From assembly GCA_038077975.1 (NCBI GenBank), contig JBBUGM010000011.1:22038-86037 (forward strand): 64,000 nucleotides of DNA, read 5' to 3'. The notes under the pieces are model-generated. The model did not search any database. It was given only the letters and a program-made list of their open reading frames with translations, and was not told the DNA's origin. The stretch comes from Patescibacteria group bacterium (GTDB lineage: Bacteria > Patescibacteriota > Minisyncoccia > UBA6257 > 2-01-FULL-56-20). Every line of letters starts with the position of its first letter. The stretch's first letter is position 1. The position numbers and the translations under genes are program-made. This document shows positions 5,280 to 52,777 of this stretch, piece by piece.

Positions 5280-5514
5280 ATTATTCACCCGCAAGAATAC
5301 CCGCCCGCTTGCGGGCGGGATGAATTGCGGCACGTGAATAATAACCCCGCCCTATTTGTGGCAGAAATTGAGCAATTGCAATATTAGAGCCGTAAGGCGG
5401 CTTCGCCTTTAAGTGATGCATATGCTTAGATTTTACAGCAAATAGGGCGGGGTGAATAACCGCAAGACCGCAGAGCGGTTTTGGATACCGCACCGCTCTG
5501 CGGTGCGGTTATTC
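5280..5514. repeat. three abutting long hairpins (5280-5342, 5344-5453, 5454-5514)
   Basis: Perfect stems: ATTATTCAC/GTGAATAAT plus CCCGCCCGC/GCGGGCGGG; ACCCCGCCCTATTTG/CAAATAGGGCGGGGT; GAATAACCGCA/TGCGGTTATTC plus CCGCAGAGCGG/CCGCTCTGCGG. Confidence 0.85.
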
Positions 5515-13319: not shown

Positions 13320-13460
13320 AATGTTTAAATCACAAATTACAAGCACCAGATCACAAACAATATCTAATTTCGAAATTCTAAATTCAAAATGTTTTGGTCA
13401 TTTGGATTTTATATTTTGAATTTGTTTGGGATTTGTTATTTGGAATTTGAAATTTTTGCC
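13320..13460. repeat. imperfect palindrome, AAATTC/GAATTT word family
   Basis: The arm ...CTAAATTCAAAAT pairs with ATTTTGAATTTG.... The right arm encodes the rplC C-terminus ISNSK. Confidence 0.7.
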
Positions 13461-14008
13461 ACCTCTACAATTCCGCCTCTCGCTCCAGGAACGGCTCCGT
13501 GCAAGAACAAAAGATTTTTGTCTTTATCGACACCAACAACTTTCAATCCTTTAATCGTGACCCTTTCAACTCCCATGTGTCCTGCCATCCGCCTTCCCGG
13601 CACGACCCTCTGAAAGGCGGTGCTGCCGATCGAACCAGGCGCCCTGAAACGATTTTTTTGCCCGTGCGTCTTTGGACCGCCGGCGAAACCGTGCCGTTTC
13701 ACGACTCCCTGAAAACCTCTGCCCTTCGAAGTACCGCTCACACGCACAACATCACCTTCCTTAAAGGCCTCGACAGAGATAGCGTCGCCTTTTTTGAACT
13801 GTCCAATATCAAAAGTGGCTGGCCATTTGCTCCTGAATTCTTTTTTGTGCTTGCCGAAAGAAACCCGAACGGCTTCGTAGCCGTCCTTTTCTTTCGTACG
13901 CGAAGCGGAAACTTTGTTCGGCTCGGCTTGAAGCACCGTGACAGGGATCACGTTCTGGTCTTTCCAGACCTGGCTCATCTTTAATTTTTTCGCCAAAATA
14001 AAACTCAT
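13436..14008 (-). CDS. rplC: 50S ribosomal protein L3
   Basis: 190 aa with FQGVVKRHGFAGGPKTHG. The C-terminal ISNSK is encoded by a repeat arm. Confidence 0.9.
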   Translation of the reverse strand: MSFILAKKLKMSQVWKDQNVIPVTVLQAEPNKVSASRTKEKDGYEAVRVSFGKHKKEFRSKWPATFDIGQFKKGDAISVEAFKEGDVVRVSGTSKGRGFQGVVKRHGFAGGPKTHGQKNRFRAPGSIGSTAFQRVVPGRRMAGHMGVERVTIKGLKVVGVDKDKNLLFLHGAVPGARGGIVEVAKISNSK

Positions 14009-14100
14009 GTTTTCTTTTCGCAGACCGACGCGGACTTCACGCAGACTAACGCGGAAAATTTCTGCGTAGTTCTGCGTGCGTTCTGCGTAAGTCTGCGTTT
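14009..14100. repeat. imperfect palindrome, CGCAGA/TCTGCG word family
   Basis: CGCAGACCGACGCGGACTTCACGCAGACTAACGCGGA ... TCTGCGTAGTTCTGCGTGCGTTCTGCGTAAGTCTGCG. Confidence 0.8.
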
Positions 14101-14104
14101 ATGA

Positions 14105-14134
14105 CACAAAAACGACCCGGTCTTAGCCCGGGTC
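14105..14134 (-). terminator. intrinsic terminator
   Basis: 7-bp GC stem plus a T5 run on the minus strand. Confidence 0.65.
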
Positions 14135-14234
14135 GCCTGGCTAACACTCCAAAACCTTTATTCGGTTATCGAAAAATAACCATTATTTAGCTTAGTCCCG
14201 CACCGTCCGCCGTCGGCGGTCTGGTGCGCGGATT
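14105..14234 (-). ncRNA. candidate about 130-nt structured leader or sRNA ending in an intrinsic terminator
   Basis: Starts about 7 nt after the -10. Contains the hairpins CGCACC..CCGCC-GAC-GGCGG..GGTGCG and GGTTAT-TTTTCG-ATAACC. Ends GACCCGG-GCTAAGA-CCGGGTC-GTTTTTG. Confidence 0.45.
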
Positions 14235-14240
14235 ATGTAG

Positions 14241-14269
14241 ATGATAGCAAAACGGCGCAACAAAGTCAA
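14241..14269 (-). promoter_or_regulatory. sigma70-type promoter TTGACT-17-TATCAT between rpsJ and rplC
   Basis: Minus-strand read: TTGACTttgttgcgccgttttgcTATCAT. Confidence 0.6.
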
Positions 14270-14322
14270 TGCGAATAGGGCTGGCGGACACAAAACCAAG
14301 AAATAGTCCTTATTTCCTAAGG

Positions 14323-14352
14323 AAAAACCGTCCTTCTGCGGGGCGGTTTTTT
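14323..14352. terminator. candidate bidirectional terminator immediately after the rpsJ stop
   Basis: AAAAACCGTCC-loop-GGGGCGGTTTTTT. The minus-strand version has one A.C mismatch. Confidence 0.45.
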
Positions 14353-14685
14353 CTAAACCATCTTTATTTCGACATCGACTCCGGCCGGAAGATTTAGATT
14401 GCTCAGTGACTCGATTATCTTCTGCGAGGGATTCAATATCTCGACGAGACGTTTATGGACTCGGAGTTCAAACTGTTCGCGCGAGTCCTTGTCGATAAAG
14501 GCCGAGCGATTCACTGTGTAGCGCTTTATCTCGGTTGGAAGCGGGATCGGACCTGCGATCTTCGCGTCGTTCCTTTCCGCTGCCTCAATTATCTGGCGCG
14601 AAGAAGTGTCGATTAGTTTGTGATCGTACGACTTAATGCGCAAGCGCAATTTCTGCGGAATGTCCGCTTCTTTCTTTTTTGCCAT
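14353..14685 (-). CDS. rpsJ: 30S ribosomal protein S10
   Basis: 110 aa with [14 protein letters not shown]. Directly downstream of tuf. Confidence 0.95.
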
Positions 14686-14757
14686 GGATTACTAAATTAC
14701 GAATTTCTTACGAAAATACGAATTCGTACTATTCGTACTTATTCGTAATTTCGTAAC
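14686..14757. repeat. imperfect palindrome, ACGAAT word family
   Basis: Centre TACGAATTCGTA with imperfect flanking arms. Fills the tuf-rpsJ spacer. Confidence 0.75.
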
Positions 14758-15957
14758 TTACTTCAGTATTTTCGTTACAACTCCAGCGCCAACTGTTTTT
14801 CCGCCTTCGCGGATAGCGAACCTCTGCTTCTCTTCAAGGGCTACCGGGGAGATAAGTTTCACAACAAGTTTAACGGTGTCGCCCGGCATAACCATTTCCA
14901 TGCCTTGCGGCAACGTAACTTCGCCCGTCACGTCCGTCGTTCTGATGTAGAACTGCGGCTTGTATCCGGCAAAGAAAGGTGAGTGTCGGCCTCCTTCCTC
15001 TTTGGAGAGGATGTAGACCTCTGATTCGAATTCCGTGTGCGGCGTAACCGAACCGGGCTTCGCGATAACCTGACCGCGCTCAACGTCTTCTTTCTTCAGG
15101 CCGCGGAGGAGAATTCCGACGTTGTCGCCGGCCATACCTTCGTCCAAAAGCTTGTTGAACATTTCGATTCCCGTAACTACGGTTTTCTGCGTCGCGCGCA
15201 ATCCGATCACTTCAACTTCTTCGTTGACCTTGACCTTGCCGCGCTCAACACGGCCGGTAACCACGGTGCCTCTGCCTTCGATCGAGAAAACGTCTTCAAC
15301 AGGCATAAGGAACGGCCTGTCGAGCTCGCGAACCGGCTCCGGGATGAATTCGTCCAGTGCCTTTACGAGATCGAGGATCGGTTTCGCGTCAGCGTCATCT
15401 GCCGATTTCGCGTTCAAGGCCTTCAAGGCCGAACCGCGGATGATCGGGGTCGTGTCTCCCGGAAATTCATATTTCTTCAAGAGCTCGCGGACTTCGGATT
15501 CGACGAGGTCAATCAATTCCGGATCATCAACTTGGTCAACTTTGTTCAAGAAGACGATGATCGCCGGAACTCCGACCTGACGTGCAAGCAAAATGTGTTC
15601 GCGCGTCTGCGGCATCGGGCCGTCTGCGGCCGAGACAACCAAAACCGCTCCGTCCATCTGCGCCGCACCCGTGATCATGTTCTTGATGTAGTCAGCGTGG
15701 CCCGGAGCGTCGATATGCGCGTAGTGGCGCTTTTCGGATTCGTACTCCGAGTGATGAAGCGCGATAGTAATACCACGCGCTTTTTCTTCGGGAGCATTGT
15801 CAATTTGATCGACATTTTCCTCTTTCTTCGCCCATCCCTTCATGAAGAGGACGTGCGTAATTGCCGCGGTCAAAGTCGTCTTTCCGTGGTCAACGTGACC
15901 AATCGTGCCGACGTTCACGTGCGGCTTACCTCTTGTAAACTTTTCTTTCTCTGCCAT
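14758..15957 (-). CDS. tuf: elongation factor Tu
   Basis: 399 aa. G1 motif GHVDHGKTT, plus DAPGH and NKVD. Confidence 0.97.
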
Positions 15958-16022
15958 TTTTTTATTTTTTTATGTTTGAAACGTTTTTAAACCAACCGCC
16001 TTTCGACTAAGCGTTAGTTTAG

Positions 16023-16050
16023 AGCTTACAGGCGCCATTAAATCTGTCAA
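16023..16050 (-). promoter_or_regulatory. tuf promoter P2, TTGACA-16-TAAGCT
   Basis: A second consensus -35, 53 nt downstream of P1. Confidence 0.45.
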
Positions 16051-16075
16051 GCGGCGCGCGTAAGATATTCTAAAT

Positions 16076-16103
16076 ATTATACCAGATGGAAACATGCTGT
16101 CAA
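16076..16103 (-). promoter_or_regulatory. tuf promoter P1, TTGACA-16-TGgTATAAT
   Basis: Consensus -35 and extended -10 on the minus strand, about 115 nt upstream of the tuf ATG. Confidence 0.7.
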
Positions 16104-16210
16104 CCCCGCACCTTTTCCGGCTGGTGCTACGCGCAGAGTACCGAAAAAGCCGGAAAAGGTGCGGGGTCAAGCGCGCTGTGGAAAAGTATTGAAATGCTCC
16201 TGTTAAGAAC

Positions 16211-52612: not shown

Positions 52613-52777
52613 TTAATAAGTATAACGCAGGCGTCGGGCGGCGAGTTACCCGCGCACCAGAAAACCGCAACGACAGCGTAAAATTTGTGGTTAAGTCTGG
52701 ATGGTTTTCGGTGCGGGGTTTCGCTTCACGAAACCACAAAGTAGCGGTTAGTGCCGCAACTGTAGAGCCGTGAAGAT

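Follow-up and report, generated by a model that had tools for sequence, protein, structure and literature searches.

A predicted terminator-gated leader with possible ribosome input upstream of the rplC ribosomal protein operon of a Patescibacteria group bacterium

In a 64,000-nt stretch of DNA from a Patescibacteria group bacterium (contig JBBUGM010000011.1, positions 22,038 to 86,037; this whole stretch is referred to as the window), the ribosomal protein (r-protein) genes rpsJ and rplC are separated on the minus strand by a spacer of 344 nt (14009-14352), a distance that had been given in an earlier prediction made from the sequence and that gene calls bear out. We read this spacer as the leader of the rplC-rplD-rplW-rplB-rpsS operon, acting as a transcription attenuator with input from a ribosome on an upstream open reading frame (uORF), and give this reading as a whole a probability of about 0.6. 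Judging from folding and promoter scanning, it is likely that the terminator T2 would serve as an attenuator for the rplC operon. The ribosome and uORF as its input, proposed by analogy to two leader families of related genomes (A and B), is a tentative suggestion that falls somewhat short of an even chance. The features on which the argument depends, in the direction of transcription, are the following.

14353-14685, minus strand: rpsJ (S10/NusE), the gene upstream of the leader (ORF; Pfam Ribosomal_S10 on the identical contig described below)
~14351-14323, minus strand: T1, weak terminator-like bulged hairpin AAAAACCGCC..GGACGGUUUUU with a U-run, directly 3' of the rpsJ stop (-10.1 kcal/mol)
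14241-14269, minus strand: promoter TTGACT (14269-14264), 17 nt, TATCAT (14246-14241) (consensus scan, 10/12)
14231-14197, minus strand: H1, stable hairpin CCGCGCACC..GGUGCGGG (-22.1 kcal/mol)
14189-14193, minus strand: AAGCU, predicted 5' strand of a closing helix, pairing with GGUUU at 14156-14152 (nascent folds of 87-119 nt)
14183-14166, minus strand: putative mini-ORF of 5 codons, AUG GUU AUU UUU CGA UAA (MVIFR*) (sequence reading, analogy to the uORFs of families A and B)
14177-14182, minus strand: UGGUUA, predicted anti-antiterminator, pairing with UAGCCA at 14143-14138 (full-length minimum-energy fold)
14181-14164, minus strand: H2, hairpin GGUUAU-UUUUCG-AUAACC (-6.1 kcal/mol)
14147-14136, minus strand: predicted 5' strand of the antiterminator, GUGUUAGCCAGG, pairing with CCGGGCUAAGAC at 14131-14120 (inverted repeat of 12 nt, 83%)
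14106-14135, minus strand: T2, intrinsic terminator CGACCCGG-GCUAAGA-CCGGGUCG then UUUUUGU (-18.5 kcal/mol, direct reading)
14009-14100, minus strand: word-type palindrome of ACGCAGA words followed by their reverse complements (92 nt, -44.3 kcal/mol)
13436-14008, minus strand: rplC (L3), at the head of the operon that would be controlled, rplC-rplD-rplW-rplB-rpsS-rplV... (ORF, annotation)

All of the elements listed in the original prediction were found on the minus strand by sequence reading and folding. The hairpin with a U-run that it placed after the rpsJ stop is present as T1, but is imperfect, with 14-nt arms that are 86% complementary and an A-run and a U-run on its flanks. The TTGACT-17-TATCAT promoter is as described and also carries an extended -10 TG at 14249-14248, which puts the predicted transcription start at ~14234-14236, and the two stable hairpins (H1 and H2), the clean intrinsic terminator (T2) and the word-type palindrome before the rplC ATG were all recovered with the folding energies given above. 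T2 has the make-up of an intrinsic terminator, i.e. a G+C-rich stem-loop (14135-14113) with a U-run (14112-14108) at once after it. A simple consensus terminator scan had neither T1 nor T2 among its output, and both therefore rest on folding energies and direct reading. The 141-nt leader RNA folds at -58.2 kcal/mol (z = -5.0), a value equalled by none of 200 shuffles.

A consensus scan found no promoter-like site on the minus strand at 14105-14009, palindrome included. With no promoter between T2 and rplC the operon has to be transcribed through T2, and transcription through T2 argues for a leader or attenuator and not for a free-standing small RNA (sRNA). Upon read-through of T2, the word palindrome would become part of the rplC 5' untranslated region. 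An independent small RNA had been offered as the alternative. It would be an sRNA gene of ~125-130 nt that has a promoter and a terminator to itself and acts in trans, and a consensus-like promoter and a strong terminator do flank a stable fold; trans action is also known for terminated attenuator RNAs of other bacteria, e.g. rnTrpL (PMC7968998). However, the rplC gene and the cluster downstream would then be promoterless, no Rfam sRNA family matched, and the corresponding RNAs of the relatives described below are always in sense orientation upstream of rplC, whatever gene precedes them, with an end that is often just 3-20 nt before the rplC ATG. We thus consider a separate sRNA gene very improbable.

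For the attenuator, folding predicts a pairing that excludes the terminator. The antiterminator duplex has an energy of -14.0 kcal/mol (p = 0.01 vs shuffles), and nascent-transcript folding predicts H2, the closing helix and the antiterminator at 115-119 nt, whereas in the full-length fold the terminator and the UGGUUA/UAGCCA helix supplant all three. The putative mini-ORF lies in the middle of these structures: the AAGCU/GGUUU closing helix is predicted to surround the mini-ORF hairpin, H2 encloses the G of the start codon plus the stop codon, the start region UGGUUA is predicted to be able to pair with the antiterminator core UAGCCA, and the stop codon is ~14 nt upstream of the antiterminator strand. 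A promoter before T2, none between T2 and rplC, a competing antiterminator and the recurrence of the layout in relatives all favour the original prediction of an attenuator-type leader before rplC.

We propose that transcripts of tuf and rpsJ would terminate at T1 and that the TTGACT/TATCAT promoter would launch a new transcript, on which the polymerase would either halt at T2, giving an RNA of ~125-130 nt, or read via the word palindrome into rplC. The outcome would be set by which of the two competing structures forms first, the terminator (14135-14113) or the pairing of 14147-14136 with 14131-14120 that makes the antiterminator, and a ribosome on the 5-codon ORF would be the likeliest input. 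By analogy to families A and B, we infer that mini-ORF translation and ribosome occupancy would decide the switch.

The comparison with relatives is based on 160 loci, which were collected by L3-based scans from metagenome-assembled genomes of Paceibacteria/Parcubacteria and from metagenomes and have an L3 identity of 60-76%. The window itself comes from a metagenome-assembled genome of the Paceibacteria, a group of the candidate phyla radiation. In almost all non-redundant relatives the sense strand ahead of rplC contains a hairpin with a U-run, and nearly all of the 160 loci have a promoter and then a structured leader with a terminator in front of the gene. Such leaders, like that of the window, leave no space for a further promoter and show no match to one, and rplC must therefore be transcribed through the leader terminator. 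Taken by itself, the promoter match in the window is within chance (10 sites vs 8.3 expected in 10 kb); an equivalent promoter, at a fixed distance, precedes 38 of 39 family A leaders and 32 of 33 family B leaders. The order seen in the window, i.e. T1, promoter, leader, terminator and rplC, is the same in loci L033, L127 and L072 of family A and in L043, L082 and L102 of family B.

Family A has the motif UCUCUUUAAUGG-hairpin P1-UUUCACAAGGAUAGCC-terminator in the alignment (e.g. L018:2814-2898 and L011:2905-2990), for which RNAalifold gives P1 and a closing helix P0 (UC.CUU with AAGGA), the counterpart of the predicted closing helix in the window. A covariance model of this family (R1, with members at E < 3e-5) matches 39 loci, all in sense orientation, at distances of 3-200 nt ahead of rplC. 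The pairs co-vary, with 93% of the cells paired and double (compensatory) changes in 14 of 20 pairs, and none of 500 shuffles reached as high. The strand CAAGGAUAGCC is complementary to GGCUA..CCUUG within the terminator. In each sequence its pairing is more stable with the terminator of the same leader than with the terminators of the rest of the family (-11.4 vs -10.1 kcal/mol, 0/5000 permutations; mean z = -2.2 vs shuffles), which makes the strand the predicted antiterminator of the family. The uORF of this family starts at an invariant AUG and most often has 7 codons, with a range of 6-19 and longer. Its in-frame stop falls at the 3' arm of P1 (start at -8 to +4 nt) in 31 of 38 members, compared with 5 of 38 for each other frame, and is variously TAA (13), TAG (13) or TGA (5), its end being mostly 9-16 nt before AAGG. 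The distance from the AUG to the P1 arm is unconstrained modulo 3 and the conservation of the peptides stops at MD[VAI]. The anti-antiterminator strand adjoins the uORF start codon, and the invariant 5' end of the leader, UCUCUUUAAUG, coincides with the predicted transcript start.

Family B comprises ~64 loci counting variants (e.g. L004:2850-3000, L081:2346-2483 and the regions upstream of rplC in L021 and L022), with leaders that start with CAAGGUUUCCUCGGAAGUUUUAUGC and end in a terminator. Here the uORF, which again starts at an invariant AUG, is mostly ~12-32 codons long and encodes a conserved peptide, MxIxT..G[RK]R..F[SL]L...P x stop; the spacing between the AUG and each of two conserved landmarks is a multiple of 3 (e.g. 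30, 33, 54 or 75) in 49 of 54 and 47 of 56 cases, and indels preserve the frame. RNAalifold on the MAFFT alignment of this family recovered one hairpin only, and pairing was assessed by per-sequence duplex tests instead. In these tests, a 5' segment with the AUG pairs with a segment overlapping the 5' arm of the terminator, again better with its own partner than across members (-16.6 vs -14.6 kcal/mol, 0/5000 permutations; mean z = -3.8). This helix is the predicted antiterminator of family B; the uORF start codon lies within it and the stop codon in a hairpin loop. On these patterns of sequence conservation, we read the uORF features of both families as coding signatures and the uORF as physically coupled to the terminator switch.

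In many family B loci, a further conserved block of CUGGAUUYCC, a hairpin and GGRACGAUCAAGAnnAUG abuts the rplC start (‘family C’, e.g. L006:2925-3003 and the last ~70 nt before the rplC ATG in L021, L025 and L028), which may be a translational operator.

The window leader cannot be assigned clearly to either family and is a third, idiosyncratic variant. Like family A, it has UAAUGG, a mini-ORF that begins with AUG and lies in a hairpin, and an (A)AAGG block; UAGCC/GGCUA forms the core of the antiterminator in both, the terminator of both contains CCGGGCUA, and the start context of the mini-ORF, AAAUAAUGG, resembles the invariant UUUAAUGG of that family. Two blocks of family A, UCUCUU at the 5' end and CACAAGGA, are missing from the window leader, which in turn has H1 as an additional hairpin on its 5' side and ~8 nt inserted before UAGCC. 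Membership in family A was not demonstrable, as the P0 pairs are absent and the match to R1 is insignificant.

H1 itself is probably a dispersed element that was inserted into the leader and lies outside its sensor or regulatory core. There are four CGCACC..GGTGCG hairpins in the window, where ~0.2 would be expected (5489-5507, 14199-14228, 16107-16163 and 52653-52715), and others occur in relatives (L019:1761-1865, L080:460-585 and L160:48-149); the extended ends CCCCGCACC..GGUGCGGGG are kept throughout, around variable interiors of 7-115 nt. Hairpins are plentiful in the intergenic regions of this genome in general.

The switch strands of the window, GUGUUAGCC..GGCUAAGAC, recur in L073 and in L054, to which L131 and L136 are identical, and they have been kept there without compensatory changes despite an L3 identity of only ~61-66%. 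The spacer of these loci is only 75-81 nt long and contains no promoter. The stop codon of rpsJ lies ~11-12 nt upstream of the antiterminator strand, so that a translated ORF ends just before the switch and the end of rpsJ takes the position of the window mini-ORF. In the window, the mini-ORF begins AAAUAAUGGUU and the 3' end of rpsJ reads AAAUAAAGAUGGUUUAG (direct reading), and the mini-ORF may be a relic of a duplicated rpsJ terminus (...AUG GUU UAG).

Several observations weigh against the reading of the window as an attenuator with ribosome input. With R1, the best match in the window, at 14185-14106 on the right strand, reaches 15.7 bits (E = 0.42), hardly more than the 15.4 bits of a plain terminator elsewhere. 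As many as 7% of genomic 25-mers pair with the terminator equally well as the proposed antiterminator does, and an ORF of 5 codons is expected by chance. Moreover, MVIFR has no recognisable regulatory codons or arrest signal. Genome, metagenome and protein searches for close relatives gave L3 identities of at most 76%, with the exception of one contig (CAYIAC010000001.1, GCA_964361345.1) with a spacer 100% identical to that of the window, and yielded no homolog of the window leader with informative variation; H1, H2 and the mini-ORF are without covariation support because this only close relative is identical. Comparison of the spacer with 80 loci by blastn and nhmmer gave matches only in the word palindrome and the terminator. 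Finally, the classes seem to be wired in opposite ways. In family B, initiation on the uORF would block the antiterminator and favour termination, a sensible negative feedback on ribosome supply, whereas in the simplest model for the window and family A translation would favour read-through. Such opposite signs imply that at least one of the wirings has been misread.

Some of these points would fit a constitutive layout, in which T1 and T2 are leaky, the hairpins stabilise or insulate the 5' untranslated region and T2 fixes the ratio of short to long transcripts. Indeed, the window antiterminator is just moderately significant, intergenic hairpins are abundant, and some relatives (L112 and L114) have just a promoter, a plain hairpin with a U-run and a word palindrome before rplC. 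A constitutive layout nevertheless leaves out the covariation of antiterminator pairings in both families, that conserved uORFs are found at fixed distances from the switch and that the window switch strands have been retained in L054 and L073 at their L3 divergence, and we consider it quite unlikely.

Another explanation is a feedback by free L4 or L3, which would bind the leader or the terminator hairpin and promote termination at T2, like L4 with NusA in E. coli. The location immediately before rplC-rplD fits, and a candidate L4 r-leader precedes rplC-rplD in Archaeoglobi (Eckert & Weinberg 2020, PMC7247131). The UAGCC/GGCUA element in the terminator loop and antiterminator is conserved in family A, in L138 and L042 and in the window type, which would not usually be expected of a plain terminator and would suit a protein site. 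Short resemblances also exist to positions 598-617 of E. coli 23S rRNA, a putative L4 contact: UAACCGAAUA is an exact 10-mer match and CAAGGUUAACC is like the family A strand CAAGGAUAGCC. However, chance alone would give ~0.35 exact matches of 10 nt to 23S rRNA, and the hairpin concerned varies in the bacterial large subunit (LSU) rRNA consensus, and we do not count these resemblances as evidence. No Rfam model matched the spacer even at E <= 10, LSU rRNA models included, and an L4 or L3 feedback would leave the conserved uORFs of the relatives unexplained; for the window it is unlikely.

The Rfam searches were those for which the original prediction had called. Using cmscan with Rfam 15 at the gathering threshold, only tRNAs were found in the window and nothing beyond tRNAs at 20 related loci, and for the spacer at E <= 10 there was nothing meaningful, only chance terminator-like matches. 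No unrelated family claims the element, in agreement with the statement that it could not be matched by eye to SRP, 6S, tmRNA or RNase P RNA; these families and the curated r-protein leaders are ruled out by the absence of an Rfam match.

The proximity of rpsJ raises the question of Nus-factor control, in which NusB-S10(NusE) on a BoxA-like 5' end of the leader would modify the polymerase or block uORF translation and thereby set read-through; if true, this would couple the output of rpsJ to the rplC operon. Nus complexes chiefly oppose Rho-dependent termination and not termination at intrinsic terminators. In family A, the BoxA-like block UCUCUUUAAUG is found at the predicted transcript start and fits GYTCTTTAANA with 9 matches in 11 positions; C4 and T6, which are required in E. 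coli suhB (PMC5725501), are among the matches. The BoxA of rrn operons in this lineage may be a different one. In contrast, family B has no BoxA-like block and the window has GCUAAAUAAUG at this place, with a 7/11 match and the CUUU core gone, so that BoxA was rejected for the window and cannot be the main mechanism there. We give this possibility very little credence.

With these alternatives weighed, the attenuator with ribosome input remains our preferred reading of the window, and it can be extended to the lineage. In this wider picture, the main r-protein operon of Paceibacteria would be under ribosome-sensing attenuators of at least three undescribed classes of rplC leader, with a conserved uORF wired to the switch; the 3' end of rpsJ would serve as the uORF in the simplest genomes, the window mini-ORF would possibly be a relic of rpsJ, and the BoxA-like 5' end of family A may admit an S10/NusB input. 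We regard this picture as possible, with the odds against it. If true, a terminator-gated leader would be the main control point of a cluster of more than 20 r-protein genes, and the translating ribosome as its input would constitute a feedback in which ribosomes count ribosomes at the level of transcription, a departure from the classical binding of r-proteins to their own mRNA. Families A and B are in any case two well-supported new RNA/uORF motifs that are fit for Rfam. To our knowledge, little is known about how r-protein synthesis is balanced outside Gammaproteobacteria and Bacilli, and bacteria of the candidate phyla radiation (CPR) cannot be grown in pure culture. Our literature searches found no r-protein leaders in CPR and no leader peptides before r-protein operons, and the survey in PMC7247131 lists no CPR leader.

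The surroundings of the leader are worth describing in their own right. From ORF calls and the annotation of the identical contig, the gene order on the minus strand is tuf, rpsJ, spacer, rplC, rplD, rplW, rplB and rpsS, with the following gene upstream of rpsJ.

14758-15957, minus strand: tuf (gene calls)

The genes rpsJ and rplC are neighbours in most bacteria, and to that extent the premise that they are normally adjacent is correct; it fails in this lineage, where the gap ranges from 75 nt to >3 kb. Unrelated genes lie between rpsJ and rplC in many relatives with gaps of 0.6-3 kb, and L001 has an ORF of 310 aa there on the opposite strand (L001:1814-2746, locus minus strand). The junction looks like a hotspot for insertions in the lineage.

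Word palindromes made of tandem 7-10-nt words and their reverse complements also fill the tuf-rpsJ (14689-14756) and rplC-rplD (13327-13455) spacers of the window, and like palindromes built from other words occupy the interval between leader terminator and rplC in relatives (e.g. L018, L020, L024, L059 and L076, and further L091, L114, L122, L138 and L142). The tuf gene has its own perfect promoter, TTGACA-16-TATAAT (16103-16076, minus strand), and a leader of ~115 nt (15958-16103), which contains UAGUCGAAAGGCGGUUGG and a 22-codon ORF starting at UUUAAUGG and ending 12 nt before the tuf ATG. A GGUCGAUUGG / AGGUCGAAA motif is common to the regions upstream of tuf in L004, L006, L015, L016, L022, L026, L030, L043 and L082. 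No Shine-Dalgarno-like sequence was seen before rpsJ (14685), rplC (14008), rplD (~13319), tuf (15957) or the uORFs, and the start codons of these window genes are in A/U-rich contexts, which together suggests Shine-Dalgarno-independent initiation in this organism.

One of the closest precedents in kind is the S10 leader of E. coli, whose control by L4 has been reviewed (PMC10931766) and to which the original prediction had likened the window. Both are promoter-proximal structured leaders with an intrinsic terminator gating an operon with rplC and rplD, and the analogy holds for the position before rplC-rplD. It probably does not extend to the mechanism, as there is no Rfam match and the relatives point to uORFs. 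The E. coli leader lies upstream of rpsJ, whereas that of the window lies downstream of rpsJ and upstream of rplC; the Rfam searches detected no similarity in sequence or structure, and the E. coli leader has no leader ORF. The candidate L4 r-leader of Archaeoglobi is likewise a structured RNA directly upstream of rplC-rplD-rplW-rplB, but it is archaeal, of unrelated sequence and without a cmscan match to the window. The leaders of trp, his and pyrBI and those of the erm/Term-seq type are alike in having a short ORF, mutually exclusive antiterminator and terminator structures and a set distance between stop codon and switch, and for families A and B the support for these features is strong. 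The differences from these leader-peptide attenuators are that the genes controlled here encode r-proteins, that there is no run of regulatory codons and that the ORF in the window has just 5 codons. Attenuators, leaders of r-protein operons and leader peptides are thus familiar kinds of element, and an r-protein attenuation coupled to a uORF would be an unusual variant of them.

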